Source: an uncultured Pseudomonadota bacterium
GTDB lineage: Bacteria; Oederibacteriota; Muellerivitia; Muellerivitales; Muellerivitaceae
Direction: 5' to 3'
Assembly: GCA_963836235.1 (NCBI GenBank)
Contig: CAWIIP010000001.1
Location: 416,001-480,000, forward strand
Length of the DNA stretch: 64,000 nucleotides
Of the stretch, positions 619 to 25,124 are shown piece by piece (within the stretch, counting starts at the first letter, position 1; the number at the start of each line of letters is the position of its first letter). Position numbers and translations under genes: made by a program. The notes below the pieces were generated by a model. That model saw nothing but the letters and a program-made list of their open reading frames with translations. It was not told where the DNA came from and made no database searches.

Positions 619-660
619 GCCGGTGGGTAAATTGGTGTGGCCCCATCTGGCTGAGGATGG

Positions 661-693
661 AAAGCCCCGGTGTAAAACCGGGGCTTTCATTTT
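661..693 (+). terminator. Probable intrinsic terminator after Hsp20
   Basis: AAAGCCCCGG-tgtaaaa-CCGGGGCTTT hairpin followed by T-rich tract. Confidence 0.7.
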
Positions 694-711
694 ATTAGTC
701 GGGAGTAGCCC

Positions 712-1185: not shown

Positions 1186-1235
1186 AGCAGACTTCCATCC
1201 GGATTTGACGAACCGGAAAAAACTGGAGACTTGCC

Positions 1236-2282: not shown

Positions 2283-2321
2283 GTCCTTCCCGTCCAGAGT
2301 GGCCAGTCTAAGGAGGCGTCA

Positions 2322-3194: not shown

Positions 3195-3425
3195 GAACCA
3201 GAAACCCCCGAGAAGGACTTCATGCCGAATACAAAAATTTTAAAAGATTTCTTCGATGGACAACAGAGGAATTGGAAGTACTAAATCAATGCCGATGATG
3301 GCCATGGGGAGCCTCCTTACCGAAGATGCTTGTTTTTGGTTCAGGCTTTATTTCCGAGTGTTTTGGAAACAATCCATATGTTCCCAGTCATAAACCCCGT
3401 CCATTAACGAGGTTATGCTTTTCCC

Positions 3426-4193: not shown

Positions 4194-4635
4194 TCTAGAA
4201 ACTATAAACCGTCTGGAAAAGACTCATTCGTTTAACGCGGGATCCGTTGCACGAAACTTCTTTTTCATTCTTACTTATCTGCATTTTTGCAGCCTTCTTA
4301 CTGCTAAACGAGCTTGTCAAATTTCCCAGTGTTTTCCGGTGAACCCGAATCGAAAGTTTTGGAAGTGGCGCCGCTGGATTTCAAACGCCTATTTTTTCGG
4401 CGAAGTAAAATCATCTTATACCTCAGGTAACGGGCAAATCCCTGAAGCCTGTTTTGGGGCGAACCCACAGCCCTTTCAGGCGGAAGACCTGGTATTCGAC
4501 CTACAGGTGGTGGGATGGGCCCAACAGGGGGTATGGGATTGCCTAAAGGCATGTATTTCCTCCACTCCAACGGCGCGAAAGCCTTTTCATAAGAAAACGC
4601 GGCGTTAATGAAGCCAGACCGGGATGGAATTTGCC

Positions 4636-5811
4636 TTATCGGATGGAAGGATAGCTATCCGGCATTCCCTTTTTGGAAAGCACGACCTGCCACACCTGTT
4701 TTTTGCGGGACCGGAAGAGTCCCGCGCATTGGAGCAGGTAATATTTCCACATCCGGTAAAACCGCTTCCCGTAACAGGGTTTAATTTCATCCCAATGCTC
4801 GTTGAAGTTCTCAAACCAGGCCATCAAGGTCTTGTCGTAGTCCAACCCGAAATTGTGCCAATCCTCCATCACAAAAAGGCCCTCAATGGCCGAACCAACC
4901 TGTCCAATGGAAGGAATCAGGGAGTTTGGGAAAATGTATTTGTCGATCCAGGGGTCCGATTCAACTTCCGATTGGTTGCCGCCGATGGTGTGAAGAAGGA
5001 AAAGACCGTCATCATTTAGGCAGGAATTCATAATTTCCATGAACCGGCGGTAATTCTTGTAACCGACGTGCTCAAACATTCCCAGGGAGACGATATGGTC
5101 GTATTTCTCCTCCCCTAAGTCGCGGTAATCCTGGAGACGTATCTCAACCGGGAGTCCTTTACATCTTTCCCGCCCAAGTTCGGCTTGGTCCTTTGAAACC
5201 GTGATGGCCGTTACCCGAGCCCCGTACCATTCGGCGGCGAACTTGGCGAAACTGCCCCATCCTCCGCCCACGTCCAGAACATGCTGGTCGGGACGCAGTC
5301 GGATTTTTTGACATACCAGGTCCATCTTAGCCCCTTGCGCCTGGTCCAGATTCCCCGCGTTCTTCCAGTACCCACAGGTATAGGCCATGTGGGAGTCCAG
5401 CATTGCCTGGAACAGGTTATTGCCCAGGTCATAATGCCTTTCCCCAACTTCGAAAGCCCTATTCCGGCTCTGGAGATTCAACACCAACGCTTTGAAGTGC
5501 ATCCAAACCAATTCCCAGGTGGGTTTCACTTTTTCAACCAGTTCCGCTTTGAAGAGACGGTAAAAGAAATCATCCAGGCGAGGGGCATTCCACCATCCGT
5601 CCATGTAGGATTCCCCTAAGCCAAGCGAATGATGGGCGAAAACCCTGGAATAAAACCGATCGTCGACCACTTGAATATCCCAGGGCCTTGGGCCGTTTAT
5701 TTGAATTCCGCCAAATTCGAGGATTTCCCTTGTTTTGGATTTCCAATAGGATCCGCTGAAAGGAACAGGCGCGGAAAAACCCGTGTCGTATAGACTTTTT
5801 GAGTTATCCAT
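4636..5811 (-). CDS. cfa: Cyclopropane-fatty-acyl-phospholipid synthase
   Basis: HYDLGN, YTCGYW, VLDVGGGWG, GMFEHVG, YIFPNS motifs. Confidence 0.93.
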   Translation of the reverse strand: MDNSKSLYDTGFSAPVPFSGSYWKSKTREILEFGGIQINGPRPWDIQVVDDRFYSRVFAHHSLGLGESYMDGWWNAPRLDDFFYRLFKAELVEKVKPTWELVWMHFKALVLNLQSRNRAFEVGERHYDLGNNLFQAMLDSHMAYTCGYWKNAGNLDQAQGAKMDLVCQKIRLRPDQHVLDVGGGWGSFAKFAAEWYGARVTAITVSKDQAELGRERCKGLPVEIRLQDYRDLGEEKYDHIVSLGMFEHVGYKNYRRFMEIMNSCLNDDGLFLLHTIGGNQSEVESDPWIDKYIFPNSLIPSIGQVGSAIEGLFVMEDWHNFGLDYDKTLMAWFENFNEHWDEIKPCYGKRFYRMWKYYLLQCAGLFRSRKKQVWQVVLSKKGMPDSYPSIR

Positions 5812-10425: not shown

Positions 10426-11238
10426 CTATTCCAGCATTCCCTCCAAGTAACGAATTGCTTTACGGGCGCGGCGGAGCAACCTCCATTCTTTCCGCTCCAG
10501 GATTTCAAAGCCACCCTTCTTCCCTTCTGCGGTTATCCCGAGTCGTTCGAAGGATTTTTCCACTCCTTGCCAATCCCTCAACTGTCCCAGGGCATACTGG
10601 ACCTCGTTGGTGGCCTTGAGAAGTTTCTTCCTCTTAGGAGGATGCAGGAAGTCAAACAGTTCCAGGTCGTAACGGAGGCGTTTGGCTTGGATGCGCAGAT
10701 GATGCAAGACTTTTCGTTTGGGGCCCCCCTGGTCATAGTTCGAAATGGATTTTTGAACCCGTTCCATCTCCTTACAAAAAGAAGCCTCAACCTTTTTTTG
10801 CAATTTACTCCTTTTCATCTTTCTCTCAATCTCTTGAAACACCATGGCAATGTCCGAAAAAAACAGGTCGAAAGCCTTATTAACCAGGATGGCTTGGAAG
10901 GCTCCCTCCTTCTTCCTCCTTCGGGCGGACCCGCTGGTTGCCTGGCGTTTTTTGGAAAATCCCTCCGACCGCAATATTTTCGAGGACACATGTGACTCCC
11001 TCAGGGGCCCTGTCAAACCTTGCAAGTATTTTATTTGTTCGATTTCATGTTCGAAACGCCGTTTTTCCAAAAGATGCTTTTCCAAGCGCAGTACCGCTTC
11101 GATGCGTCTTAAGGAAGTCCTGAAATCGTGGAGGGTGCGTGGGTCAATCCGTTTTATCAGCTTTCGACGGCACACTTTTCGAGCGGCGCTAGCATCAATA
11201 GCCTCTTCAAATGCCCGCTCGCGATGGTCTACCGGCAT
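10426..11238 (-). CDS. CHAD domain protein; N-terminal ~14 aa resemble a type I HsdR start
   Basis: LHDFRTSLRR, LHHLRIQAKRLRY and LGQLRD CHAD motifs; start overlaps the hsdS stop (TGATG). Confidence 0.8.
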   Translation of the reverse strand: MPVDHRERAFEEAIDASAARKVCRRKLIKRIDPRTLHDFRTSLRRIEAVLRLEKHLLEKRRFEHEIEQIKYLQGLTGPLRESHVSSKILRSEGFSKKRQATSGSARRRKKEGAFQAILVNKAFDLFFSDIAMVFQEIERKMKRSKLQKKVEASFCKEMERVQKSISNYDQGGPKRKVLHHLRIQAKRLRYDLELFDFLHPPKRKKLLKATNEVQYALGQLRDWQGVEKSFERLGITAEGKKGGFEILERKEWRLLRRARKAIRYLEGMLE

Positions 11239-11753
11239 CAGGCCACCTCTTCGCGAAGATCGATTTTCCCTGTCATGGCTGCCGAAATTAACGTTTGGCG
11301 ATATTCTCTAAGTTTTTCAATTTGAGTTTTGATTTTTCCAGCGGGTTCATCAAGATGCTGATTTCCACCCCTTTCATTTTTGATGGCAAGCAAATCTATT
11401 CTCGTTGTTTTTTTATCCAAGAAAGAAACAATTTCTAATTGTTCTTTCGCCTCAGGAATATAAATTTCTAAATCTCCCAATTTATCGCCAGTTAAGTGTG
11501 CAATTGTCGCCCTATTACACAAAACTTCAAACCAACCAAACCAATCCATAGTTTCGAGTAAATATTTTAAAAACTTCAAAGAGTTCTTTTTTTTGCTTCG
11601 AATTCTGTGAAGAGCATTTTGAATTATGCATTTATTTGGAACATTTTTTAAAATGGAAGCTCGACCTACTTCTCCGCCCTCACAAACAAGCAAGTCCCCA
11701 TCTAAAACTTCAAATTTCTCTAGTTCGTTTTTATTTGTCCACATTTCAGGCAG

Positions 11754-13177
11754 GAAGTTGTCCCGCCGCCAGTTGAATTAGTGAAGTGACGGCCCCTGGT
11801 TTGCCTACCTTAGGCCACAGCCGTTTCTGCGTCAACGTCGTTCGCCGTGCACCTCCTCAAAGCCGCCTGCAAAATTGGAATTTCCCTGTATCCTCTGAGG
11901 CGTTTGAAAGCTCCTTCCGCACGCATCAGGCCCGCTGTCGCCCAACGCTGGCGCATGTCCCCACCCCTCCACCGCTTCACCCGCACCGTCACCTTACCCG
12001 CCACACTGAACGCCGACTCGATGGGGTTTGTCGTCACCAAGCTTTTCGCCAACAGGGCCGGTAGACCCAGCTTGGCCACCGTCAGGGTCTCTTCGAGGCC
12101 TTCTCTCAGGCTTGCGGCCGCGTCCTGGTTGATCCGGGTGAGCCAGGCGCCCAGAGTGTTGAGGCGCTTCTCGCCTTCACGCCAGTCCTTGCAGGCGTAA
12201 GCCTCCGCCATGCGGCTTCGGATTTCGTCGTGGTGCTTCTTTGCCACGTAGCCCAGCACGTTTCGGATCTTGTGCTGCTGGCAGCGCTGAATTTGGACAT
12301 TGGATCCACACAGCCGCTTCACCGCCGCCGCCAAAGCCTTGGACCCGTCCAGTACGAACAGCATGGGGGTTTCGAAGCTTAAGCCCCGATCTCTCAAGTC
12401 CGTCAACAGATCGGTGCAGACCTGGGCATTCTCCGTGGCCCCTTGGCGCAGACCCAAAATGACCTTCTCCCCGGCCCCTTTCCCGGCTTTCACCCCCAGG
12501 GCCACCACCAGCATCTCTCCCCCATAGGGCACCCCGTCGATGAACACTGCCACGAACTCTTGCCCCTCAAAACGTCTTTCTGCAAGGGTTTTCATCTGTT
12601 TGGCCGAGGCCTTCACGAAGCCACGGCTCACACTGGAGCGCTTCATCCCAAACCCTTTAGCCAAGGGCTCTAGGCACCCTTCGTACTCTCGGCAGGACAC
12701 CCCCCGCACCATGCGCCGAAGGGCGTTTTCAGGCATGGCTTCGGGGTTTTGGAGTTTCTGATAGGTCTGAAGAAGGACTTCACCGCCCTCTTTCATCCGC
12801 GCCCGGGGCTTCTGGAGGGGCACCTTGCGTCCGGCCAGTACAACCGTCCCACCCTGGCTTCCCCAACGGCTGGCCGATCGCCCCAGCTGGCGCTGGTGCA
12901 TCGGCCCGCACAGGTCTTGGATTTCCGCTTGTAGCAACTCCTGGGCCGCCAACAACCCCAACTGACAAGCCAGGCTGTTGAGCCCATCCTGAATCATCGC
13001 CAATCGCTCTTCCCGGCTTAACGGCAGTTGTCCAAAATTCTTGTCGCCTTTCGAGGTGTTACGGTGTAACTTTCTCATGGTGGTTTCCTCTCTTTTTTAA
13101 AAAAATTGGTCACCCAGACTTTACAGTCTGGGCAGAGGAGCCACCACCTTCTTTTCAACTACGAACGGGACAATTTC
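11754..13177 (-). mobile_element. IS256-family insertion sequence
   Basis: Terminal IRs GAAGTTGTCCCG..AGTTGAA / TTCAACT..CGGGACAATTTC (18/24 match); 8-bp TSD TCAGGCAG at 11746-11753 and 13178-13185. Confidence 0.93.
11810..13078 (-). CDS. IS256-family DDE transposase
   Basis: FIDG, VLDGSKAL, QRCQQHKIRN, TTNPIES. Confidence 0.95.
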   Translation of the reverse strand: MRKLHRNTSKGDKNFGQLPLSREERLAMIQDGLNSLACQLGLLAAQELLQAEIQDLCGPMHQRQLGRSASRWGSQGGTVVLAGRKVPLQKPRARMKEGGEVLLQTYQKLQNPEAMPENALRRMVRGVSCREYEGCLEPLAKGFGMKRSSVSRGFVKASAKQMKTLAERRFEGQEFVAVFIDGVPYGGEMLVVALGVKAGKGAGEKVILGLRQGATENAQVCTDLLTDLRDRGLSFETPMLFVLDGSKALAAAVKRLCGSNVQIQRCQQHKIRNVLGYVAKKHHDEIRSRMAEAYACKDWREGEKRLNTLGAWLTRINQDAAASLREGLEETLTVAKLGLPALLAKSLVTTNPIESAFSVAGKVTVRVKRWRGGDMRQRWATAGLMRAEGAFKRLRGYREIPILQAALRRCTANDVDAETAVA

Positions 13178-13411: not shown

Positions 13412-14086
13412 TTATTTTCCAATTATTTTACTTTCAAATATTTCCAATTTAGTTAACCACTCATTAAAATGCAGGCATTCGCCCCTGATTCTGGCCAACC
13501 CGATTCTTTGAGTGACCAACGGTCCGTAAATCTTTTTTTGATATCCAGGGAAAATATCCGAAAGTCTTTTAGATGGAGCCGTTTGTGGGTTGTCGTTAAT
13601 GTCTTCGGGAGTCTCAAATTTTCCCTTTATCTCAGCCAGTTTTTTTTCTTTCCCCGTGTCCAACAGCGCCCCAGCCGTTTCACCGGGGTCCACAAAAAGC
13701 ATGGCTTCGAACTCATGGACCTCAAAATTAGGGATAAACCTTCCATCACCGATATCCTCCTTGAACTTTTGTTCCAGGAACTTTACCCGTTCGATACCGC
13801 GCTTTGAGGTTGAATGATAGCCTGGAAAATCGGAAGGGAGGCCGTAATAATCAATCATGGTGGTGACACAAACCACATCCGTGTCCTTCAAAAGATTCAT
13901 CAGGTCGTACCTGACTTTTCCATATGAAACAATGCCGCCCTTAAAATCCGGCCCCTTTTTCACCCGCTTCGTGGTGGCCAGTTTTGCGATTAGGAAAATC
14001 CCTTTCAGAGCAAAATAGGGGCCTAGTACGTCCCGGACGAAGGTTTCTTCCGTTTGCCCTTCAGCCAAGACCAGGATTCGGCTCAA
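13412..14086 (-). CDS. DUF4276-like TOPRIM-fold protein (putative nuclease effector)
   Basis: LAEGQTEETFV, TTMIDYYG, HEFEAMLF, PEDIND, APSKRL; TTG start overlaps the ATPase stop. Confidence 0.85.
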   Translation of the reverse strand: MSRILVLAEGQTEETFVRDVLGPYFALKGIFLIAKLATTKRVKKGPDFKGGIVSYGKVRYDLMNLLKDTDVVCVTTMIDYYGLPSDFPGYHSTSKRGIERVKFLEQKFKEDIGDGRFIPNFEVHEFEAMLFVDPGETAGALLDTGKEKKLAEIKGKFETPEDINDNPQTAPSKRLSDIFPGYQKKIYGPLVTQRIGLARIRGECLHFNEWLTKLEIFESKIIGK

Positions 14087-15171
14087 TGGGTTGGCCTTCC
14101 GCCCAGAATGTTTTTCTCCCATAGATCGCCCAATCCGTATTCCTCAAGCCAATCATCCATCTTGGCTTTCTCCAACTTGGAAAAGACCGATTGTCCTTCC
14201 TGCCGATCAACAACAACAATATCGGCTGGCTCAAACTGGTTGACAAGTCCAACGGACTGGGTAGATGCGATGATTTGTGTTTTAGTGGAAGTGCTTTTAA
14301 GAAGATCAGCGAGCAAAGCAACGGCGTAGGGATGAAGGCCAAGTTCGGGCTCATCTAGCAAAATGACGGATGGTAGTTCCGGTTGCAACAATAGTGTGGC
14401 CAGACAGATGAACCTTAAGGTACCGTCCGATAGGGTATGGGCGTTGAAATAGTCGTCCGAACCCTTTTGGTGCCATTCCAAAAGAATTTTTCCCTTATTC
14501 AACTTGGAGGGGCGCAAAAAGAAATCATCAAAGAATGGTGCCGCCAATCGCACGGTTTCAACGATATTTTTATAATTGCCTTTATGGCGTTCCTGTAGGA
14601 AGTAAAGGAAAGCCGCGAGGTTTGACGCATCGGGCCTGAAAACCTCGTTATCATCTATTTCTCCCGTTTGTTTCATCTTGGAGCTTTCGCTTGTGTCATG
14701 AAAGTGGTAGACACGCCAGCTTTCCATGTTTTTTAAAACATGATTGACGGTCGCTTTTTGCTTAGCCAAAGTATGTAGTTTTGTTTCCTTGTGCCCTTCA
14801 CCGAGGCCTTCCTCATATGGGCGTTTATACCCGGCACCTTGAAAATAGGCGGATTCTTCCAGGAAAATCAGCGAATCATCCGTTGAGGGGCCCAATTTGC
14901 AGGAATATCCATTCGGATTGAAATCACAATGTATAAAAATTTCATTGGTTATTTTGGAGCCGAAGTACAAGAACGTGTTCGCGCCGCCTGATTTACCGAC
15001 AAAAACCTGGAGGTTTTTTAGGACAATTTGGTTTAAAAGCTTAAAGAGAGAAATAAAATTTGACTTCCCTGCCCCGTTGGGACCAATGAGAACATTTAAG
15101 GGTCTTAGTTTCAAATCCATATCTTTTATGGATTTGAAACCTTGAACTTTAACGCTTTTAAGTGCGTGCAT
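14083..15171 (-). CDS. ABC/AAA_21-type ATPase (defence-associated)
   Basis: GFKSI, GPNGAGKSN, LSDGTLRF, LLDEPELGLHP, STQS. Confidence 0.92.
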   Translation of the reverse strand: MHALKSVKVQGFKSIKDMDLKLRPLNVLIGPNGAGKSNFISLFKLLNQIVLKNLQVFVGKSGGANTFLYFGSKITNEIFIHCDFNPNGYSCKLGPSTDDSLIFLEESAYFQGAGYKRPYEEGLGEGHKETKLHTLAKQKATVNHVLKNMESWRVYHFHDTSESSKMKQTGEIDDNEVFRPDASNLAAFLYFLQERHKGNYKNIVETVRLAAPFFDDFFLRPSKLNKGKILLEWHQKGSDDYFNAHTLSDGTLRFICLATLLLQPELPSVILLDEPELGLHPYAVALLADLLKSTSTKTQIIASTQSVGLVNQFEPADIVVVDRQEGQSVFSKLEKAKMDDWLEEYGLGDLWEKNILGGRPTH

Positions 15172-15247: not shown

Positions 15248-15430
15248 TTATAATTCCTTTAATTCCTCAGCGATCTCGGCTTCCAACTGTTTAATCTCCG
15301 CCTCAATGACATCCAAGGGTCTTATGGTCTGATACTTGTAAAAATGCCGAGTGAAGGGAATTTCATAACCTATCTTGGTCTTACCATCGTCAATCCAGGC
15401 ATCCGGCACGTGTGGCAGAACTTCAGTTGC
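15248..15430 (-). pseudogene. hsdM: 3'-terminal remnant of a type I methyltransferase subunit (not in the ORF track)
   Basis: Manual translation EVLPHVPDAWIDDGKTKIGYEIPFTRHFYKYQTIRPLDVIEAEIKQLEAEIAEELKEL*, a typical HsdM C-terminus; no start codon, in-frame stop just upstream. Confidence 0.85.
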
Positions 15431-15484
15431 ACACTATCCTTTTTGCGACAGGCATGTGCAGGAGCCTGCAATTATTGGTGTTTT

Positions 15485-15820
15485 TCACCGTTCCGCCGAA
15501 TTCGGCGTGATTTGGATAAGTTCAAACGCAGTTTCAATGTCGACATCATCTTTCTTAGAACTAAGCGTACCACCGAAAACCGAATCTTCAAAGCACGACC
15601 GACAGAGCGTACTGATAAAAAACTTTTCGGTCTTCTTTGCGAAAGCCCCCTTGAATTTATTCTCGAGTTTTTCCCGTTCTTTTGAATACAATTTTCCGAT
15701 ATACATATTCCGGAAAACCGGCTTGAGACCATAATTCTTGCACCACAGAACCGCCTTGTCCCGATGCCGCCAGTCGCGCGTTTCCCACGATACTAGGGTG
15801 ATGGCATTGAAATTGTTCAT
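15485..15820 (-). CDS. cas2: Divergent CRISPR-associated Cas2
   Basis: ATGA overlap with cas1; Cas2-like size and pattern (LVSWE..RDK..CKNYGL..V..MYIG, C-terminal LCRSC); canonical YD replaced by WE. Confidence 0.75.
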   Translation of the reverse strand: MNNFNAITLVSWETRDWRHRDKAVLWCKNYGLKPVFRNMYIGKLYSKEREKLENKFKGAFAKKTEKFFISTLCRSCFEDSVFGGTLSSKKDDVDIETAFELIQITPNSAER

Positions 15821-16827
15821 GATATCGAAAAAAGTTTTTCCGCACGAAACGGGTTGTACTTGTCCTCCTTTTCGACAAAGTGACGTGCCAACGCCCTAAT
15901 CTGGTTATCTATGATCTGCTTAAGAGTATATTGTTTCCCCCGCCATGCCGTCGTTTCATTCAACCGCCTCATGATCGCCCCCACCACGACGCTTTTTCCC
16001 TCAGGCGATAACAGATATTGCCCAACCGCGGTTTTTTCAAAATATTTCCGTTGGCTCAGTTTCTTTTCTATGAAAAGCGGGAAAAGCACCGAGTCGACGA
16101 TTGGTACGCGGAATTCTTCGACAAGATCGAGAACGAGGGCAGGCTTACCATAGCGTTCACTGTGGTAGAGGCCGAGATATGGATCAAGACCGACGTAAAG
16201 GCATGCCCGTTCGACTTCATTGTAAAGGATGCCGTAACCATAATTCAGTACGCTGTTAAACTGGTCCCTGCCTTGTGGTTTTCGGCCCGGGAATCTATAG
16301 AATTTTTTTAACCCGCTGAAATATTTGTCCGCGATGTATCCTTCCGTACCAAGGAGTTGCTCCTTGCCTTTCTCCGAACACGGGACATTGTCCAAGACAT
16401 CAAAAAGGGTCTGCGCTTGTAAGAGCTCGGTCCCCACATCCTTTTTATATCGGTACGCGAGATATCGGAGTAGATCGAGCTGATTAGCGCATTTGCCCCG
16501 CACTAATTCTTTTGCGATTTTGAACGATCGCTCAAGCGAAGTTGACGCTTCCAGTTGCGCTTTACGAAGACTCGCCAACCCTTTTGGTTCGCTTGAAAAT
16601 AGTCTTCCGATGGGCTTGCCAAAAGAACCGAGATAGACGATATCAACATCGTGCTCAATCGCGAGCTGAACTGCGTGAGTCGTGAGCGAGGCCGGCCGCA
16701 GTATGACTATTTTCTCCAGTCTGTGGATTGGGTATTCTTTTTTCTCTTTAACTTTCGGAAAAGAAAGGACGATGCGCTCACCATTTACGCCGATCTTGGT
16801 ACCGTAAGTATCAATAAGCAAGTCCAT
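15817..16827 (-). CDS. cas1: CRISPR-associated endonuclease/integrase Cas1
   Basis: LLGTEG, DQFNSVLNYGYGIL, GLDPYLGLYH, LVLDLVEEFR; catalytic E/H/D present. Confidence 0.95.
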   Translation of the reverse strand: MDLLIDTYGTKIGVNGERIVLSFPKVKEKKEYPIHRLEKIVILRPASLTTHAVQLAIEHDVDIVYLGSFGKPIGRLFSSEPKGLASLRKAQLEASTSLERSFKIAKELVRGKCANQLDLLRYLAYRYKKDVGTELLQAQTLFDVLDNVPCSEKGKEQLLGTEGYIADKYFSGLKKFYRFPGRKPQGRDQFNSVLNYGYGILYNEVERACLYVGLDPYLGLYHSERYGKPALVLDLVEEFRVPIVDSVLFPLFIEKKLSQRKYFEKTAVGQYLLSPEGKSVVVGAIMRRLNETTAWRGKQYTLKQIIDNQIRALARHFVEKEDKYNPFRAEKLFSIS

Positions 16828-16901
16828 GTGATCTGCCCCCCAAATTTCGTAAACCATCTTTGTACGGAAGATGCCTGGCTACCATTATCCATCATTTTCG
16901 T

Positions 16902-16929
16902 TGTTCACGAAGGGTCCCCGCCGTGGACA
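16902..16929. repeat. 28-bp palindromic repeat, copy 1
   Basis: TGTTCACGAAGGGTCCCCGCCGTGGACA. Confidence 0.85.
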
Positions 16930-16968
16930 GTGTTTTCTACGCTTCTCCTTGTTCAAGACTCCTCCGGC

Positions 16969-19632
16969 CTACCGAACCCCGAATTTCCTAATAAACCAGG
17001 TTTTCACAAATTGGGTGAGCACGCAATAGCACAATAAGGTGAGGGCGATAAACCCAAAATAATGAAGGGGCAAGGGCATGAGGCCGACCTTGGAGGCTAA
17101 GGGTGAAAAAGGGAAATAAATGCCGACCGCCATGACGCATAGGGTCGTCAAAGCCAACGCCGGCGCTGCCCGGCTTTGGATGAAAGGAATCTTGTTGGTG
17201 CGGATCACGTGGACGATTAGGGTCTGGGTCAGAAGACCCTCCACGAACCAGCCGGATTGAAACAAGGACTGTCTTTCGGGGCTATTGGCCCCGAAGAAGA
17301 ACCACATCAAGGCGAAGGTGGTGTAGTCAAAGATGGAGCTGATGGGGCCAATGAAAAGCATGAAGCGGCCGATATCGGCGATTTCCCATTTGCGAGGCCG
17401 GGAAAGGTATTCCTCGTCCACCCGGTCCAAGGGGATGGCCGTCTGGGAAACGTCGTAAAGAAGGTTCTGAATAAGAATTTGCACCGGCAACATGGGAAGA
17501 AATGGCAGAAGAGCGCTGGCCCCCACCACGGAAAACATATTGCCGAAGTTGGAACTGGCCCCCATCTTGATGTATTTGATGATGTTGCCGAAGACCTTGC
17601 GACCCTCCAAAACCCCATCCGCCAACACTAGCAGGCTTTGTTCCAGCAAGATGATGTCGGCGGATTCTTTGGCGATGTCCACCGCGTTGTCCACGGAGAT
17701 TCCTACGTCCGATGCCCGCAGGGCAGGCGCGTCGTTGATGCCGTCCCCTAAATACCCGACCACATGGCCCTTCTGATGCATGGCTTTGATGACGCGTTCT
17801 TTTTGGGAAGGGGAAAGTTTGGCGAATACGTAACAGCCCTCCACGGCCTCGGCCAGTTCCCCGTCCCCCATGGCCTCAATTTGCCCGCCCAATAAAATCT
17901 TTTCCGCGTCAATGCCCACCTGGGAACAAACCATACGGGTCACCGTTTCATTGTCCCCGGTGAGGACCTTCACCGCCACGCCATGATCCTTCAAGAGGGC
18001 TACCGCTTCCTTGGTGGTTTCCTTCGGTGGGTCCAGGAAAGCCAGATAGCCGAGCAACACCAAGTTGCATTCGTCTTTCATCGAATAGGCAGGGTGATCG
18101 GTGGGCATTTCCTTATAGGCTACGGCAATGACTCTTAGGCCTTCCCCGTTCAAATTTTCGGGGATACCCTTCAGGCCCTTTCGCGTTACTTCGTCTAAGG
18201 GAGTAAGCACCCCGTCAATTTCCACTTGGTCACAGACGCTGAAAACTTCCTCAAGGGCTCCCTTGCAGATAAGAATGTCCCTTTTGCCTTCCTCCTCTAC
18301 GACCACCGACATGCGCCGACGTTGAAAATCGAAGGGGATTTCATCGACCTTCTTATAGTTGGCCTGGGGTTTCAAGGATTTTTCCAGATCCACAAAGGCA
18401 AGCACCGCCACGTCCAGGAGATTTTTCAAACCGGTTTGGTAAAAGCTGTTCAAGTAGGCATATTCGAGGGTTTTAGGGCTCTTGGAGCCGCGCGCGTCCG
18501 CGACTTTCAACAGGGCCACCTTGTTCTGGGTCAGGGTCCCGGTCTTATCCGTGCAAAGGACGTCCATGGCCCCAAAGTTCTGGATGGAATTCAGGCGCTT
18601 CACGATGACCTTCTTGCGGGACATCATCATGGCCCCCTTGGACAGGTTGACGGTCACGATCATGGGGAGCATCTCGGGCGTCAACCCCACGGCCACTGCC
18701 ACAGCGAACATGAAAGCCTCGAACCAATTGTGTTTTTCAATACCGTTGATCACAAAGACCAGTGGCACCATTACCAGCATGAAACGCAACATGAGGGTCG
18801 TGAATCGGTTTACTCCCGTTTCAAAGCTGGTAAGGACACGACGGCCCACCACGGATTTCGCCAAAGTGCCCAGATAGGTTTCGGCGCCGGTGCGGAGTAC
18901 TAAAGCTGTGGCAGTACCGCTCAAGATGTTGCTCCCCATGAAACAAAGGGTCGGCCATTCCAGGGGGGTGGCAGGAGAGGCTTCCAGGGGTGCCGCCGTC
19001 TTTTCCACCGGCAGGGATTCCCCCGTGAGGGCGGCCTGGCTGACAAAGAGGTCCTTGCAGGAGAGAAACCGCAGGTCGGCGGGAACCATGTCACCAGCGG
19101 CTAGGTGGAGAACATCGCCCGGTACTAAATTCTCGATGGGTTCCTCCAAGTTTTGAATCGGCTCGTCCCCACGACGGCGCAGGACCGTGGCCCTATTGGT
19201 CACCATGGCCTTGAGTTTTTCGGCGGCCTGGCTGGAACGGTATTCCTGGTAAAAGCCGAGAGTCACGCTGATGAAGGCCATCGCGGCGATCACGATTCCC
19301 CCCGCGAAGTCGTGTGTGAGGAAGGAAATGAGGGAAAGGACTCCCAAGAGTAGTGTGAAGGGAGTGCGGAAGTTACGGAACAGCTGTAGGTACCAGGGGT
19401 CGGGTTTTTCATGCACCACTAGGTTGGGTCCGTGAAGCTCAAGACGATGGCGGACTTGGCTTTCGGTGAGGCCCTCGGGCGAACTGTGCAGTTGCTTGAG
19501 TAACGCGGGAATATCAGCCTTTCCCATTTCCAAAAGAGAGGCGAGGGAAAGGGCCGCTTGGGCCTTCGCAGTTTCGCCTTTGAGCCTTTCCGGTTGCAAC
19601 AATCGGTAGAAATGGTTTTTTAATAAGGGCAT
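16969..19632 (-). CDS. mgtA: Magnesium-translocating P-type ATPase
   Basis: LTGES, GLTPEMLP, DKTGTLT, PFDFQRRRMS, GDGIND, SSNFGNMFS. Confidence 0.95.
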   Translation of the reverse strand: MPLLKNHFYRLLQPERLKGETAKAQAALSLASLLEMGKADIPALLKQLHSSPEGLTESQVRHRLELHGPNLVVHEKPDPWYLQLFRNFRTPFTLLLGVLSLISFLTHDFAGGIVIAAMAFISVTLGFYQEYRSSQAAEKLKAMVTNRATVLRRRGDEPIQNLEEPIENLVPGDVLHLAAGDMVPADLRFLSCKDLFVSQAALTGESLPVEKTAAPLEASPATPLEWPTLCFMGSNILSGTATALVLRTGAETYLGTLAKSVVGRRVLTSFETGVNRFTTLMLRFMLVMVPLVFVINGIEKHNWFEAFMFAVAVAVGLTPEMLPMIVTVNLSKGAMMMSRKKVIVKRLNSIQNFGAMDVLCTDKTGTLTQNKVALLKVADARGSKSPKTLEYAYLNSFYQTGLKNLLDVAVLAFVDLEKSLKPQANYKKVDEIPFDFQRRRMSVVVEEEGKRDILICKGALEEVFSVCDQVEIDGVLTPLDEVTRKGLKGIPENLNGEGLRVIAVAYKEMPTDHPAYSMKDECNLVLLGYLAFLDPPKETTKEAVALLKDHGVAVKVLTGDNETVTRMVCSQVGIDAEKILLGGQIEAMGDGELAEAVEGCYVFAKLSPSQKERVIKAMHQKGHVVGYLGDGINDAPALRASDVGISVDNAVDIAKESADIILLEQSLLVLADGVLEGRKVFGNIIKYIKMGASSNFGNMFSVVGASALLPFLPMLPVQILIQNLLYDVSQTAIPLDRVDEEYLSRPRKWEIADIGRFMLFIGPISSIFDYTTFALMWFFFGANSPERQSLFQSGWFVEGLLTQTLIVHVIRTNKIPFIQSRAAPALALTTLCVMAVGIYFPFSPLASKVGLMPLPLHYFGFIALTLLCYCVLTQFVKTWFIRKFGVR

Positions 19633-19857
19633 GGATTAAACTCGCTTTCCAAAACGTCCTCAACACTGACCAATTCTACTCCCCCTTCTGGCCGCACCGA
19701 AAACTCATTACCTTTCGAAATTGGGGCGACGTCAAGTCTACGCAATCAGGAAAGTAACGGCCGTTTCCCGATCTGCTTCTAAATATGAATATGGGTGTGG
19801 CTAAGGCCGTCGGGGACGTTGTGGGCGAAGCGGCGAGGAAGGCTTTGGGTCTTTAGA

Positions 19858-19885
19858 TGTCCACGACGGGTCCCCATCGTGGACA
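19858..19885. repeat. 28-bp palindromic repeat, copy 2
   Basis: TGTCCACGACGGGTCCCCATCGTGGACA. Confidence 0.88.
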
Positions 19886-19934
19886 ACCTTTAAAACAGAA
19901 AACCTTAATTAAGCGGTTAATAAAATCCTATTTT

Positions 19935-20563
19935 CTAAAATCGAAACTGAAGATAAAAATTAGGAACAACGATAGACGTGTTGTTGGTCGGAGAATAAGA
20001 ATCCCAGGAGTAATAGGGCGGGGAAAAGACCGCGTAACCGGGAACAGAATTGGTTCTGAGAAAGCTTTTCATGTAATCCATGGTTAAACCGACACCCAAA
20101 TTGGAAAGGATGAAATATTCGATGCCCAAGCCAACAAGTAAATCATGTTCCGTTGTGTTTGCATTTGGATAAACCCCGTTTTCGTAATAATTCACGGAAT
20201 TCGCGGACGTGGTTCCGCTGATGAAATCGTAGCCGAAATGAAGGTAGGTTTGAAACAAGTTGAACACCCGTCTTTTGCGGGTGCTGAGATTATATCTTCC
20301 TTGAAGGGTAAGCCTGAAAAAGTCGACTGAGCCTCCAAAGGATGAGTCAGAGGTATTGAAGGAGGTCCCGCGGAGACTTCCCAATGGGGATCGATCAGGT
20401 AACCGAGGGTGATCCCGGTAAGCAGTGGAAAACCGTAATCCAGCTCAATTAAGAACTGCTGTTTCCCGGATAAGTCATTTCCGCCATTGGAGTCAAAATT
20501 ACCACCTGAACAAAACCCCACCGGAATCAGTATCAATAAAAAACAAAAAATACTTTTTTTCAT
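19935..20563 (-). pseudogene. Small outer-membrane beta-barrel-like protein with one frameshift near 20368
   Basis: Signal peptide MKKSIFCFLLIL in one frame; beta-strand pattern ending FYLQFRF in another; adding one G at GCG-GG-ACC joins them. Confidence 0.65.
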
Positions 20564-20586
20564 AATCACACCTTTCTAATATCGCC

Positions 20587-20614
20587 TATTCACGACGGGG
20601 CCCCGTCACGAATA
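20587..20614. repeat. 28-bp palindromic repeat, copy 3 (compensatory changes at the ends)
   Basis: TATTCACGACGGGGCCCCGTCACGAATA. Confidence 0.8.
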
Positions 20615-20635
20615 GGTTGGTTTGATAAAAAATAT

Positions 20636-20663
20636 TGTTCCTTCAGGATCCCCGTCGTGGACA
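20636..20663. repeat. 28-bp palindromic repeat, copy 4 (left arm degenerate)
   Basis: TGTTCCTTCAGGATCCCCGTCGTGGACA. Confidence 0.75.
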
Positions 20664-20700
20664 GCGACCCCTCATCCATATCCATCATAATTTCACGGAG

Positions 20701-21105
20701 TTAACCGCCAAGCACTTCCAAAAATTCCCGCGGGCTCAACACTTTTATGCCGTGGCACTTGGAATGTGGAAAATGCTTTAGATTGCCACTGACGAGGTAG
20801 GCGTTCTCTTGTTCCCGGGCGGCCTCCAAAAAAGCCTCATCATGCGGGTCGGGCAGCCCCGCCGGCGGGAAAGGCTGGACGGAACGGATTCCCTCGCTCC
20901 GAATCCGCAAAATCAAGAAATGAACAGCTTGCGTTTCAAAACCAAACTCAGGCCTCGACAGCACTTTTTCATATTCCCCAATGATATCTTCGTTATAAAC
21001 CGGCTGAAACCCGCCTTCGTTCATGAAATCCAGCAAACGGGCGCAGGGTCCGGTTGCGGTTAAAAGGCCGGAAACCAAAACATTGGTGTCGAGCACCACC
21101 TTCAA
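20701..21105 (-). CDS. PIN-domain toxin (VapC-like)
   Basis: MKVVLDTNVLVSGLL, EY, DPHDEAFLE, SGNLKHFP. Confidence 0.92.
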   Translation of the reverse strand: MKVVLDTNVLVSGLLTATGPCARLLDFMNEGGFQPVYNEDIIGEYEKVLSRPEFGFETQAVHFLILRIRSEGIRSVQPFPPAGLPDPHDEAFLEAAREQENAYLVSGNLKHFPHSKCHGIKVLSPREFLEVLGG

Positions 21106-21389
21106 CGGCGTTCGGCCTTCCTCGTTTTGGCCACAACCGCGTCAACTTGTCCCATCTTCCATCGGTCAAGTCCCTTTGCCTTTGCCTTGGCCCTCATATG
21201 GTCAATGGCTAAACGGGCCTTCGCCTGGTGCCAGGCCTCCAAGGTTTCTTCCAATTCCAGTTCCCCAACCCGGCAAAGGAGGGCCATCGGTTTTCCGTTA
21301 TTAGTGACCACTACGTCCCCTTGTTGGTCCAATTCCTTCCAGACCATGCCCGATTTGCCTTTCAATTCCCTCACCGAAATAAATTTCAT
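21102..21389 (-). CDS. Phd/YefM-family antitoxin
   Basis: ISVRELK...VVVTNNGKPMALL; overlaps the toxin start. Confidence 0.9.
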   Translation of the reverse strand: MKFISVRELKGKSGMVWKELDQQGDVVVTNNGKPMALLCRVGELELEETLEAWHQAKARLAIDHMRAKAKAKGLDRWKMGQVDAVVAKTRKAERR

Positions 21390-21413
21390 GGCGTCTCCTT
21401 ATCGTATAACAAT

Positions 21414-21441
21414 ATGATACTCAATCGTGACACGCTTTCAA
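21414..21441 (-). promoter_or_regulatory. Candidate sigma70 promoter of the TA operon
   Basis: TTGAAA-16 nt-TATCAT on the minus strand. Confidence 0.45.
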
Positions 21442-21464
21442 GTCCATAAATTAGTGGCTGGGAT

Positions 21465-21492
21465 TGTCCACGAAGGGTCCCCGTCGTAGACA
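21465..21492. repeat. 28-bp palindromic repeat, copy 5
   Basis: TGTCCACGAAGGGTCCCCGTCGTAGACA. Confidence 0.88.
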
Positions 21493-21581: not shown

Positions 21582-24500
21582 TTAAACCTTAGAAAGCTGC
21601 TTTGGCGGGTTGGCGGGATTGAAAGCTGGCAGCAAAGCTGTTCCTGACAGAATCTTCTCGGCTTGTTCCATGGCCTGTTCCATCTTTGGGTAACGAACCA
21701 GACGGTATCCCCTCACTTCTTCGGGCAAAGAAAGAACAGCCACCCATCGCTCGTACATCTCCGGGCTGGTATATTCAAAACGGTCTACCAGGGCCTCGTA
21801 CCAGGCCCTAAAGCCTTTTTCTCGCTTGTGCCAGGTGGGCATCAGGCGGCGGAGGAATTTCATGTGTTTCATGGTGTTCAGCATCCAATCGCGGCTGTTG
21901 AAATCGAATTCGATATTCATGCCCATTATGTCGAAATGGGGTCGGTTGAAGTGCTTGTAGATGATCTTGTCCCCGTGGGCTAAATCCACCTTGTAACGCT
22001 TGGCGTCCTTCTCGTATTTCTCGGGGCTGGTCAAGAGATGGGCCACATAGACCTCGTCCTTGATTTCCATAACCTTATGCAAATACTTCACCACCGCTTT
22101 GGTGGCTGAGAATTCGGCGGCTTTAGAATCCTTCTTCAAGGTGGCCAGCACCCGGTTCAAGTATTTTTGGGCGTAGGCGGTATTCTCGAACTCGATGAGG
22201 TCGTAGAGGCGGTTGGCGAATTGGACCCGGGTGTCCTCGTCCCCTTCCCAGGCTTTAAGGAACTCTTCGGTCATCCTGATGTAAACATCGGCGCGGCTTC
22301 CACCTAATAGCCCGGCCTTCTTTGCCATGATTTCCTGGAAACTCAAGCGCACTTCGGCGTTGTACTTTTCGGGATGGACGGCCACATCCCGGCCCAAATG
22401 GAAGGCGTCAATATTGTGCTTGGCGGCGCTGGGGTTGAAGTTGTCCTTAATGGAATCGATCATCTCGTGAAGGGTGACGGGCAAAAGGCCCCTTTGGAAG
22501 GCCACGCCCAAAAGGAGGACGTTCACGAACACCTTGTTGCCCAGGTAATGCTCGGCAATGGCGCTCATATCGGCGCCGAAATAATCCTTGGTGTATTTCT
22601 TGAAAAGCTCGGCCAGTTCGACAGGGCTGAAATCTTCCTTCCCCATCAGGCTCAGGATGGTATGGGTTTTGTGGGTGTTCACGACCGATTGGGTATATTG
22701 CTTGGAGCCCACCCGGAAATTTAGGCGGGGGTCCAGGCCCCGGGCCGCTTCCAGGATATCCAAACCCAAGAGCAGGTTTGTTTTACCTTGGGGTTGAAGG
22801 GGTGAGACCACTTTTTTCTTTTTGGAAAAGGTAATTTGGGAATTAACGCCGCCATTGCGGATGGCGATGCCCTTTTTATCGCAAAATGTGATGTGGTAGC
22901 CATGTTTTTCGGCGGCCCGGACCAGGACGGCGGTGGAACTGCCGATACCCATGCCCCCAACGCCTGATATATAAGCCCGCCAGTCTTCCTCAAATTCGGT
23001 GGGCTTGGGCATGGGAATGAGGCCGGGGTCCGGCAAGGGCAGATTTTCCTGCTTGTGGGCGCGGACGATGGTGAGTTCCTCGAAGGCTGGGCAAGCCTTG
23101 ATGCGGGTGCAGGCCATGTCGGAAACGCAATAGGACAAGTCAGTAGACATCTTGGGGCCGTAAAGGGTGTCCTCGATGGCCAAGCCGGGACAGCCGGTCA
23201 AGCGGGTGCATTCCAGGCAATATTCGCAGGTATGGTCGTTCACGTTGACGCGCTTTTGAACGGGGAAATAGCCGTTCTTGGCCTTGAACTGGCTGACTTC
23301 CCGGCGCTTGCGGCGGTGGTAGGTGATGCCGCATTCCTTGTCGGCGATAACGAATTTCACGCCCGGTTCCAAAAGCATGTCTTCCAACAGGAAGCGGTAG
23401 TCGTCCCGTTTCTCCGGGTTGACCCTGGCGATGGTGAGGTCGTTGCCTTTCGTCAAGCCCTTCAAAACCTTCTCGATATCCTGGCCGAAAGTGGGGTTGC
23501 CCATCAAATCCGACTCCATGCCGGGATGGGGCTGGTGGCCGGTCATAGCGGTGGTCTTGTTGTCCAAAATGACGTAAAGCACGTCCTGGTTGTTCTTGAT
23601 GGAATCTGAAACTTCGGAAAGCCCGGAATGAAAGAAAGTGGAATCACCAATGAAGCAGACCGACTTGTTCGTCGAGAAGGGTGAAAGCCCAGCGCCCGTG
23701 CCGCCGCCCAGGCCCATGCCGATATAGTTGTGCATCAAAGGCCCGTTAGGAGGCATGAAGAGTAGGACGTAACAGCCGGCGTCGCCGTGGAAGAGAATGT
23801 CCAGGGGACCCATCTTGTGATGTTTCTTCATGTAAGCGGGGTCTTTAAAGTCCGCCACCAATTGAAGGAAGACCGAAGAGGAATCCCGATGGGGGCAACC
23901 GGGGCAGAAGGACGGCGTGCGTTTGGGGATATTGATTTCCAGGTCGTCCAGGCTATGAATAAATTGGATTTCCTTGTTCACCTTGGGAGTCGAGAGCTCG
24001 AAATGCTTCAAGAGGGGCGCCAAGGTGGTCATGACCACCGCCGGACTAAGACCCTTGCCTTCTGAAAAGCCTTCCAGGCTGTTAGGGAAGGATTTTCCCC
24101 AGACCGTCGGCATTTCCTTGAGCTTGCCGGACTGGTAGAGGTCCATGGCGATGTTGCGGACTTGGCTTTCGATAAAGCGGCGTTTTTCCTCCACCACCAC
24201 CAGGGTCGTGGAGTATTTCAGGATTTCCTCGACCGCCTGGGGGTCGACCGGAAAGGTAAGGCCCAACTTCAAGATCGGGAATTTTCCCGACATGCCAAAT
24301 TCGGAGAGGGCCTGTTCCAAGTAGGTATAGGACGCCCCCGCGGTAATAAAGGCGAAACTCTTTTCCTTGCCCGGAAGAACCTTATTAATGCCTTTCGCCC
24401 GGGCGGATTCCAGGAGCCGGGGAAACTTGACTTCCAGCGCCTCTTTTTCCAGGGGGATGGTGTGGGGCGGCAGGACGATGGAATGGGTGACGTCGAATTT

Positions 24501-25124
24501 GGAACTATCGATGGTGACCCTATTTAAAGTCGTGGCGCCCTTTGGTGGCTGGTTGGGATGGACTTCCACGCTTCCCCCGCCCTCGGCCGTATAGGTGATG
24601 AGCAGATAGGCGATGAAGAGGTCGGCTTCTTCCGAAAGCTCAAAGGCGACCTTGACCCAATCCTTGATTTCCTGGAAGGTGGCCGGTTCTAAAACGGGGA
24701 TGAATAAATGGTCGGAGAGGCGGCGGGAATCGACCGGAACCTGGGTAGTGTCGCTCCAGGGGTCGTCGCCAATAACGATCACCCCGGCGCCTTGATGGTC
24801 TTTCTTGGCCAGGCTTCCTGCCACCAGGGCGTCGGCGGCCACGTGGAAACCCACCGATTTCATCACCGTAATGGCCCGCAGACCCGCCATTTGGGCCCCG
24901 TTGAGCCTGGCGGCCGAGAGGGCTTCGTTGTTGGCGATTTGGGCGAGAATGCCGTGTTCTTTGAGGTAGGGCGTGGCGTTGGCGGCGGCCTCAAAAACAT
25001 CCGCCACGGGGGAACCGGGATAACCGGTTAAAAGGTTCATCCCCGCTTCCAGCCCGCCTTTGAGAATCAACTCGTTGCCGGTATAGGTTTCTGTGCCCGT
25101 ATCTTTGACAAATCTTGGGTCCAT
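21582..25124 (-). CDS. Indolepyruvate:ferredoxin oxidoreductase-family protein, fused alpha/beta subunits
   Basis: GYPGSP, FCPGCPH, GDSTFFHSG TPP motif, CEYCLEC ferredoxin, GVGGMG, KDEVYVAHL. Confidence 0.88.
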   Translation of the reverse strand: MDPRFVKDTGTETYTGNELILKGGLEAGMNLLTGYPGSPVADVFEAAANATPYLKEHGILAQIANNEALSAARLNGAQMAGLRAITVMKSVGFHVAADALVAGSLAKKDHQGAGVIVIGDDPWSDTTQVPVDSRRLSDHLFIPVLEPATFQEIKDWVKVAFELSEEADLFIAYLLITYTAEGGGSVEVHPNQPPKGATTLNRVTIDSSKFDVTHSIVLPPHTIPLEKEALEVKFPRLLESARAKGINKVLPGKEKSFAFITAGASYTYLEQALSEFGMSGKFPILKLGLTFPVDPQAVEEILKYSTTLVVVEEKRRFIESQVRNIAMDLYQSGKLKEMPTVWGKSFPNSLEGFSEGKGLSPAVVMTTLAPLLKHFELSTPKVNKEIQFIHSLDDLEINIPKRTPSFCPGCPHRDSSSVFLQLVADFKDPAYMKKHHKMGPLDILFHGDAGCYVLLFMPPNGPLMHNYIGMGLGGGTGAGLSPFSTNKSVCFIGDSTFFHSGLSEVSDSIKNNQDVLYVILDNKTTAMTGHQPHPGMESDLMGNPTFGQDIEKVLKGLTKGNDLTIARVNPEKRDDYRFLLEDMLLEPGVKFVIADKECGITYHRRKRREVSQFKAKNGYFPVQKRVNVNDHTCEYCLECTRLTGCPGLAIEDTLYGPKMSTDLSYCVSDMACTRIKACPAFEELTIVRAHKQENLPLPDPGLIPMPKPTEFEEDWRAYISGVGGMGIGSSTAVLVRAAEKHGYHITFCDKKGIAIRNGGVNSQITFSKKKKVVSPLQPQGKTNLLLGLDILEAARGLDPRLNFRVGSKQYTQSVVNTHKTHTILSLMGKEDFSPVELAELFKKYTKDYFGADMSAIAEHYLGNKVFVNVLLLGVAFQRGLLPVTLHEMIDSIKDNFNPSAAKHNIDAFHLGRDVAVHPEKYNAEVRLSFQEIMAKKAGLLGGSRADVYIRMTEEFLKAWEGDEDTRVQFANRLYDLIEFENTAYAQKYLNRVLATLKKDSKAAEFSATKAVVKYLHKVMEIKDEVYVAHLLTSPEKYEKDAKRYKVDLAHGDKIIYKHFNRPHFDIMGMNIEFDFNSRDWMLNTMKHMKFLRRLMPTWHKREKGFRAWYEALVDRFEYTSPEMYERWVAVLSLPEEVRGYRLVRYPKMEQAMEQAEKILSGTALLPAFNPANPPKQLSKV

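Follow-up and report, generated by a model that had tools for sequence, protein, structure and literature searches.

A 28-bp inverted repeat bounds gene cassettes in co-oriented arrays of an uncultured candidate phylum

Integrons are the textbook system of gene-cassette capture, and the dif modules of Acinetobacter are a second. The attC sites of integrons are imperfect hairpins of 55-141 nt with RYYYAAC/GTTRRRY ends and extrahelical bases, in which structure rather than sequence is conserved; the dif sites of Acinetobacter (pdif) alternate in orientation. According to three reports, pdif modules are moved by XerC/XerD (PMC13141974, PMC6449649, PMC7399989), and a fourth describes an insertion sequence (IS) family that targets pdif sites (PMC10132070). 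Here we analyse an array of gene modules separated by a 28-bp inverted repeat, located in a 64-kb stretch of DNA (G000:C1:416001-480000, henceforth the window) from a genome of 3.97 Mb in 5 contigs that is 99.4% complete (the source genome), and we follow the repeat through this genome, its relatives and metagenomes.

With the consensus TGTCCACGACGGGTCCCCGTCGTGGACA, a search at up to 3 mismatches finds three strong copies in the window, starting at 16902, 19858 and 21465 (Table 1), against a chance expectation of 0.00 from 100 shuffles, and allowing up to 7 mismatches recovers two weak copies at 20587 and 20636, each 7 off the consensus. The initial annotation, drawn from the letters of the window alone, had described five 28-bp copies, and all five are there, three of them clear and two decayed. 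It had also described them as intergenic, with the four asymmetric-centre copies pointing the same way, and as lying 39, 49, 37 and 89 bp past the stops of the ATPase, barrel, PIN and IOR-like genes, which our coordinates reproduce to the base; nor does the window hold a copy that it had overlooked, none existing beyond the three at up to 3 mismatches. The GGGGCCCC centre of the 20587 variant is the sole one of its kind among genome-wide matches to a looser core pattern, and the TGTTCCTT-type left arm of the 20636 copy is also seen at loci L009, L011, L023 and L044.

Throughout the source genome the looser core pattern has 43 forward and 46 reverse matches (a reversed control pattern has 0), most sites matching on both strands because the core is nearly palindromic. 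At up to 6 mismatches we count 67 copies in 18 groups, and 61 of these fall into 12 groups of 2 to 14 copies, each with a single orientation, which together span about 66.5 kb or 1.7% of the genome. The whole-genome scan thus finds co-oriented clusters and not the scatter behind housekeeping genes that the initial annotation had named as the contrary outcome. The 49 segments between neighbouring sites have a median length of 912 bp (range 206-4,719) and mostly contain a single open reading frame (ORF) of at least 60 aa (32 segments; two ORFs in 8, three to five in 8, none in 1), with 64 ORFs running against the arbitrary orientation of the repeat and 12 along it. Where all ORFs run against it (40 segments), the median distance from the stop codon to the next site is 17 nt and that from the previous site to the start is 48.5 nt. 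Each cassette begins in the middle of a site and ends in the middle of the following one, and in gene orientation it comprises a half-site, a leader of about 48 nt, the gene, about 17 nt and another half-site. What these cassettes carry is heterogeneous, 73 ORFs of at least 75 aa matching 95 Pfam families of which none occurs in more than 3 ORFs, and includes NHL-repeat proteins, PIN domains, SUKH-type immunity proteins, Sel1, a LOG-like protein, transposases and a reverse transcriptase.

Evidence on what the repeat does comes from sites that have one flank in common. We oriented every copy and compared 40-nt flanks among 374 unique sites (source genome and relatives' loci), where the left flank alone is common to 63 pairs, the right flank alone to 33 and both flanks to 3; a multicopy element that makes up part of the left-only class was left out of the strict step. 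With flanks of at least 97% identity over 60 nt, 12 left-sharing pairs differ exclusively at positions 19, 23 and 28 of the repeat, and 16 right-sharing pairs have 34 differences at positions 1-13 and 4 at 19-23. Enlarging the set by metagenome loci to 657 unique sites, with flanks of at least 95%, gives 32 pairs with only the left flank in common (from 21 flank families), 50 with only the right (from 34) and 8 with both. Among the left-sharing pairs 11 differences are found at positions 1-13 and 28 at 18-28, and 63 non-consensus letters are shared in the left arm as opposed to 2 in the right; among the right-sharing pairs the differences number 114 at positions 1-13 and 12 at 18-28, and the shared non-consensus letters 16 in the left arm and 9 in the right. 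Rare variants behave alike, since CC at positions 12-13 and T at 11 track the left flank and T at 18 tracks the right. Each arm tracks its own flank, and exchange therefore takes place within positions 14-18.

Entire cassettes are likewise found in different arrays and genomes, each time with other neighbours. Within the source genome a 1,217-bp segment with an NHL-repeat gene (C2:1195380-1196596) is identical at 1217 of 1217 positions to C4:57557-58773, the match spanning from site to site and the neighbours being unlike on both sides. When we compared the 49 cassettes, with their sites and 300 bp of flank per side, to loci fetched from other genomes and metagenomes, 5 of them recurred over at least 90% of their length with 91.7-100% identity, and in all five the homology goes no further than 17-34 bp past the cassette, so that it ends within the repeat. 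Four of the five subject loci have sequence beyond the match on either side, and the fifth (L092) stops at the alignment on one side. Module breakpoints hence coincide with repeats within as well as between genomes, where the initial annotation had considered that they might bear no relation to them. As a separate observation, many contigs of G018, a genome with 95 copies, have an end only a few tens of bases away from a repeat, which suggests branching of the assembly graphs at repeats, either because the order of cassettes varies in the population or because cassettes are multicopy.

Our findings of clustering, repeat-bounded breakpoints and arms that segregate with their flanks support the site-delimited cassette system that the initial annotation had proposed. 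We consider it probable (roughly 0.72) that cassettes of one or two genes are moved by conservative site-specific recombination, with the 28-bp inverted repeat as its crossover site. Recombination between two direct sites would excise a circle bearing one hybrid site and the circle could enter any other site, which would explain that there are many arrays per genome and no attI-like platform. The sites would act as duplex half-sites, made up of outer hexamer and 8-bp centre, rather than as a hairpin, and the recombinase would act in trans, candidates being the single Xer-like protein, which is specific to the order, and the integrases of the P4-like family, both considered below. Judged by its layout, the site is compatible with the 11-6-11 arrangement of a tyrosine recombinase. 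A more far-reaching scenario, in which platform-free cassette exchange was invented independently for a third time, beside integrons and dif modules, and is served by a conserved host enzyme in trans (the single Xer-like one of the order acting on a second, unrelated site, or one of a family that profiles do not recognise), so that every 28-bp duplex site of the chromosome could take up a cassette, falls somewhat short of an even chance.

The anatomy of the 374 sites bears on whether they work as duplex or as folded strand. Sites end in TGTCCAC/GTGGACA, and conservation resides in the outer hexamers, the 8-bp centre GGGTCCCC (296 of 374 sites) and the entire right arm, with positions 7-10 of the left arm relaxed and a nearly invariant central dinucleotide (T14 in 368 and C15 in 364 of 374). 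Only 54 of the 374 are perfect palindromes, and left-arm variants are hardly ever compensated by the opposite arm (pair 7-22, 0 of 83; 8-21, 1 of 132; 9-20, 4 of 119; 10-19, 13 of 154), so the constraint is on sequence and not on a hairpin. As to folding, in the window the 19858 copy alone folds clearly better than its shuffles (z -3.88), the other two strong copies do no better than theirs (z -1.01 and -0.80), and the stretch with both decayed copies scores z -1.84. It is decidedly improbable, to our minds, that the repeat is an operator or an RNA-level signal (a terminator, or a processing or stabilising hairpin) of accessory operons with the cassette pattern as a secondary effect. Such a role would suit its fixed position between a stop codon and the next start, and half-sites conserved in sequence are what a dimeric DNA-binding protein would require. 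It does not suit the flank that follows the palindrome in gene orientation, which is A-rich and lacks a T-run, so that the test for an intrinsic terminator failed, nor the shuffle-like folding of two of the three strong window copies, nor the lack of any Rfam family matching the repeat; moreover, it leaves unexplained why cassettes recur with homology ending inside the sites and why arms segregate with flanks. The test for an array of clustered regularly interspaced short palindromic repeats (CRISPR) failed too, as copies are spaced by 206-4,719 bp that contain genes, no direct repeats lie beside cas1 and Rfam gives no match.

Repetitive extragenic palindromes (REPs) are known to be targeted by IS110-family elements and group II introns, and the 28-bp repeat has attracted both. 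A group II intron sits inside the repeat at L110 8538-10500 and has the same junction at C1:223031 and at L035 3648 and 7556; in gene orientation its 5' exon ends in ...GGGGACCCA and its 3' exon begins with TCGTGGACA. A second multicopy element, the one that accounts for the multicopy left flank above, begins 1-2 nt past the repeat, has adjacent reverse-transcriptase ORFs and a GTGCC-type end, and may be read as another group II intron lineage; both elements lie in the sense of the cassette genes. ORFs of 132 aa found 99 nt from repeats were discarded as genes, being probably antisense frames within a group II intron. In relatives, four copies of an IS110-family gene are located 69-70 nt from repeats. 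The same two kinds of parasite, group II introns and IS110-type elements, are drawn by integron attC sites (PMC3001079, in part).

These parasites, together with its being a short, GC-rich, extragenic palindrome in tens of copies, invite the view of the repeat as a REP-like selfish or structural palindrome that spreads by itself and is a mere hotspot for general or illegitimate recombination and for insertions. Genes for Y1 transposases, the class that includes RAYT, add to this view, since the source genome has three and others are carried as cassettes in L003, L182 and L261. We nonetheless think it unlikely. None of the three Y1 genes has a repeat closer to it than about 10 kb, and PF01797 (Y1/RAYT) was not found in G018, G023, G001, G020 or G003, where half-site matches at up to 1 mismatch number 95 in G018 (99% complete), 38 in G023 (89%) and 40 in G001 (80%); on this distribution we rejected RAYT/Y1 as the driver. 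Likewise, the 61 of 67 copies that form 12 co-oriented clusters are neither dispersed nor in inverted pairs, no compensatory change preserves the hairpin of a sequence that is identical across many genera, and exchange is limited to the centre, a stretch too short for ordinary homologous recombination, which needs a minimum of about 20-25 bp. As for the linked tyrosine recombinase or RAYT that the initial annotation had suggested looking for, no linked recombinase was found, and RAYT was not found in G018, the most repeat-rich genome searched.

Which enzyme might then serve a crossover at the repeat? IntI is not among the candidates, the best TIGR02249 score in the 99.4% complete genome being 40.9 bits against a cut-off of 265. 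Eight tyrosine recombinases are present in the source genome. Six are paralogues of 57-70% identity (P4-like integrases), four of which lie 40-72 bp from tRNA genes and some of which belong to modules with a coupling-protein gene; a further one of 425 aa abuts tRNA-Gln, and together with the tRNA-adjacent P4-like enzymes it looks like an ordinary island integrase. The P4-like family occurs in 20 of 24 family genomes, a distribution compatible with a candidate role. The eighth is a 353-aa Xer-like protein, the sole Xer of the lineage, with orthologues (56-79% identity) in 23 of 24 family genomes and one sister-family genome; the other families of the phylum have Xer-type matches of 24-35% identity alone, in most cases at least two in each genome. 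A single divergent Xer thus marks the very clade in which the repeat is found, and yet the presence of Xer by itself ties no enzyme to the repeat.

In 12 of 16 orthologous loci an AT-rich palindrome of the TTCGGTATA-N8-TATACCGAA type, with outer arms that co-vary, precedes the xer start codon by 3 nt. In the source genome it lies at C1:329899-329924 (L119 5899-5924), where it is single-copy and sits at a terminus-like maximum of GC skew, and in G003 xer is located between skew samples of opposite sign, features by which the palindrome is probably the dif site of a single-Xer lineage. The 28-bp repeat itself was rejected as chromosomal dif, given that the only array of G003 is some 350-400 kb from the skew switch and that a different dif-like site lies beside xer.

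Beside tRNA genes we also observed a repeated island module (Table 1), in which a TraG/VirD4-like coupling protein and a P4-like integrase are accompanied by a 303-aa protein specific to the lineage. The predicted fold of the 303-aa protein (predicted local distance difference test, pLDDT, 86) has an apparent winged helix and nuclease-like domain, with weak matches to restriction endonucleases (best E 6.9e-3), and the protein may be an unusual relaxase. No repeat copy was found inside the modules of coupling protein and 303-aa protein.

A serine recombinase is the other class to weigh. The repeat could be its crossover site, arranged 12-4-12 or 13-2-13 with exchange at the central TC, and truncated large serine recombinase genes at the edges of arrays the remnants of the enzyme. 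The site does have a perfect dyad up to its near-invariant, non-palindromic central dinucleotide, with outer hexamer and centre conserved and positions 7-10 relaxed, and in its 28-bp size and the TGTCY start of its half-sites it resembles res site I of Tn3-type resolvases. Moreover, a truncated large serine recombinase of 278-323 aa, reduced to catalytic and recombinase domains, lies directly beside a boundary site in metagenome contigs and in 5 of 31 family genomes (74-81% identity among the five); in every case its end is separated by 9-35 bp from a boundary repeat, the left arm of which is decayed. We give this possibility very little credence all the same, because we found PF00239 in just 8 of the 24 family genomes, and not in the repeat-rich genomes G005 (98% complete), G010 (99%), G021 (90%) and G023 (89%), and because the truncated form lacks the zinc-ribbon and coiled-coil parts of its full-length paralogue. 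Its occurrence in just 5 of 31 genomes also led us to reject it as the general array enzyme.

Two further candidates were dismissed. For a bridge-type IS110 recombinase, no IS110-family transposase was found in the source genome. If Cas1 were the cassette integrase and duplicated the repeat in the CRISPR manner, flank-sharing pairs should be identical in both arms, which they are not; besides, Cas1 occurs in only 2 of 25 family genomes searched, the source genome included. Just tyrosine recombinases (Xer-like, P4-like) are present wherever the repeat is abundant, so that by elimination their class is the most compatible one. That no dedicated recombinase is linked to the sites, as is the case for pdif modules, suggests a host enzyme acting in trans.

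Several observations weigh against a crossover site served in this way. No tyrosine recombinase occurs in the 103 relative and 120 metagenome loci around sites, nor is any other recombinase linked to them, and the AT-rich palindrome that belongs to the universal Xer-like enzyme shares neither arm nor spacer with the repeat. Linkage to the flank is looser for the right arm than for the left, right-sharing pairs having 12 differences there against 9 shared variants; this may reflect either mutation of the CpG-like positions 19/20 or exchanges that in some cases fell further right. Among contigs (not raw reads) there was no junction of a circle or of a deletion, the five joints that skip sequence being inside genes, with short sides and away from repeats. 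As all genomes are metagenome-assembled and G018 contigs end at repeats, some joins could be assembly choices. Finally, the co-orientation of arrays with replication is explained by a general leading-strand gene bias of 80-83%; on contigs C4 and C5 the strand that GC skew favours carries 83% and 79%, respectively, of the ORFs that reach 200 aa.

The repeat is restricted in its spread. Searching for the right half-site at up to 1 mismatch, with controls that gave 1 match in total, we found it in 20 of the 24 other genomes of the family (candidate division FCPU426 in record titles) and in the single sister-family genome, at 2 to 95 matches per positive genome, and in none of the 15 genomes that represent eight further families of the phylum. 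A scan for the exact pattern in one genome per species returned at least 103 stretches; among the 80 matches listed, most are titled candidate division FCPU426 and the rest 'uncultured proteobacterium', 'uncultured bacterium', 'bacterium' and, once, Firestonebacteria. Viral contigs had 0 matches, and a metagenome scan gave at least 120 stretches. Conservation across many genera means that the repeat is constrained as sequence. In their accessible parts, the listed publications on FCPU426 and on integron-like or palindromic cassette sites contain no description of this 28-bp repeat.

In the window, all array genes are on the minus strand, and the IOR-like gene is followed in turn by site 21465, Phd-like antitoxin and PIN toxin, site 20636, 21 bp, variant 20587, the beta-barrel-like gene, site 19858, the MgtA-like P-type ATPase, site 16902, and cas1 with a 111-aa ORF (Table 1). 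Regarding the gene names given in the initial annotation, Pfam bears out Cas1 (3.2e-68), the mgtA-type ATPase (E1-E2 ATPase, 8.7e-36) and PIN (PIN_3, 5.5e-19), whereas Phd and the barrel are matches below threshold (PhdYeFM 23.1 bits with a cut-off of 29.8; OMP_b-brl 21.2 bits with a cut-off of 28.7). Read as two overlapping ORFs, the barrel gene is probably frameshifted. An Rfam scan of the 225-nt ATPase leader found no element. The region behind the IOR-like gene differs wholly between relatives: orthologues in five of them are followed by different genes, four other genera having no repeat within about 9-15 kb downstream and a same-genus genome having a different array.

Table 1. Coordinates of repeat copies and genes in the window and of further features discussed in the text
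Feature	Position	Strand	Details
Repeat copy	16902..16929	+	3 mismatches; left arm variant TGTTCACGAA, private to the cas1 flank
Repeat copy	19858..19885	+	1 mismatch; separates barrel ORF stop from ATPase start
Variant/degenerate palindrome	20587..20614	+	7 mismatches; symmetric GGGGCCCC centre; immediately upstream of barrel ORF
Repeat copy	20636..20663	+	left arm decayed (TGTTCCTTCAGGA); centre and right arm intact
Repeat copy	21465..21492	+	2 mismatches; first array site, 89 bp past IOR-like gene
IOR-like oxidoreductase, resident gene upstream of array	21582..25124	-	Pfam, relatives
Cassette 1: Phd-like antitoxin (21102-21389) and PIN toxin (20701-21105)	20701..21389	-	ORFs, Pfam
Cassette 2: outer-membrane beta-barrel-like gene	19935..20569	-	two overlapping ORFs, 19935-20384 and 20192-20569
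Cassette 3: MgtA-like P-type ATPase, 887 aa, 225-nt leader	16969..19632	-	ORFs, Pfam
Terminal module: solo cas1 (15817-16857) and 111-aa ORF	15485..16857	-	repeat on upstream side only
Truncated serine recombinase	C2:163827-164663 (L107 6828-7664)		also L013, L044, L242, L277
Island modules	L108 62-3716; L118 4993-9411; L112 5073-7741		

The solo cas1 (TIGR00287, 250.9 bits) has no recognised cas2 and no CRISPR array nearby. A member of a different genus encodes a 100% identical protein, the module is 99% identical in contigs from four studies, and together with the left arm TGTTCACGAA it is joined to three other right flanks in L001, L052 and L069. Contigs of three studies (runs X2, X4 and X6) differ from the cas1 module at 1-11 letters in 129-1,258 aligned bases and lose their match at 16929, the edge of the repeat, two of those that end there running on for 41 and 139 non-matching letters. 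On this evidence the cas1 unit behaves as a mobile module. At its downstream edge about 36 nt (window 15427-15463) recur directly before the repeat at C4:58774, and contigs of three runs lose their match to the window at 15426-15436, where there is no repeat. Beyond cas1, window 13412-15171 and 11238-13078 (both on the minus strand) contain an AAA_21 ATPase and DUF4276 pair, which may be a defence pair, and next to it a transposase of the Mutator family and part of the gene for a type I restriction specificity subunit.

If the repeat is indeed a crossover site, cassette-based gene sharing would have evolved repeatedly and in a form that escapes integron finders, and a very small, simple recombination site with a mapped crossover would become usable once its enzyme is found. 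Two direct sites and the short list of candidate enzymes would provide a test bed.

How does the array compare with known systems? Like integrons and clusters of attC sites lacking integron-integrases (CALINs), it has co-oriented, tightly packed and mostly one-gene cassettes with mixed cargo including toxin-antitoxin pairs; its sites are hybrids of two cassettes' halves, it is parasitised by group II introns and IS110-family elements, and its cassettes cross genera. Unlike integrons, the genome has no IntI, and none of the 12 arrays has an integrase, attI or promoter platform beside it; the site is 28 bp long, conserved in sequence without compensatory pairing and devoid of RYYYAAC/GTTRRRY ends, and exchange takes place at its centre and not at one end. 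With Acinetobacter pdif modules it has in common short modules that include toxin-antitoxin genes, 28-bp sites that can be read as 11-6-11, the lack of a dedicated linked recombinase and the targeting of its sites by an IS family. It departs from them in that the repeat differs from the lineage's own dif-like site, there is a single Xer instead of an XerC/XerD pair, array sites are all direct repeats, and arrays are chromosomal at many loci rather than plasmid-borne. The view in the initial annotation that the repeat resembles neither attC nor dif therefore holds, there being no IntI and the dif-like site of the lineage being unrelated.

With REPs, their doublets (REPINs) and RAYT, the repeat has in common its small size, GC-rich palindromic form, extragenic location and presence in tens of copies, as well as being a target of IS110-type elements; it differs in being clustered, co-oriented and identical across genera, in not keeping its hairpin pairing and in that RAYT was not found in several repeat-rich genomes. 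Small serine recombinase sites (res site I, hix/gix), from their general features, resemble it in their 28 bp, dyad half-sites, asymmetric central dinucleotide and conserved outer hexamer, though no serine recombinase was found in 16 of the 24 family genomes searched. Hence, the array works like an integron or like the dif modules of Acinetobacter while failing the defining tests of both, and its repeat also fails those of REP/RAYT, CRISPR and terminators. What emerges is an integron-like architecture in an uncultured candidate phylum from soils and peat, built without IntI and without a platform on a sequence-specific site of 28 bp.

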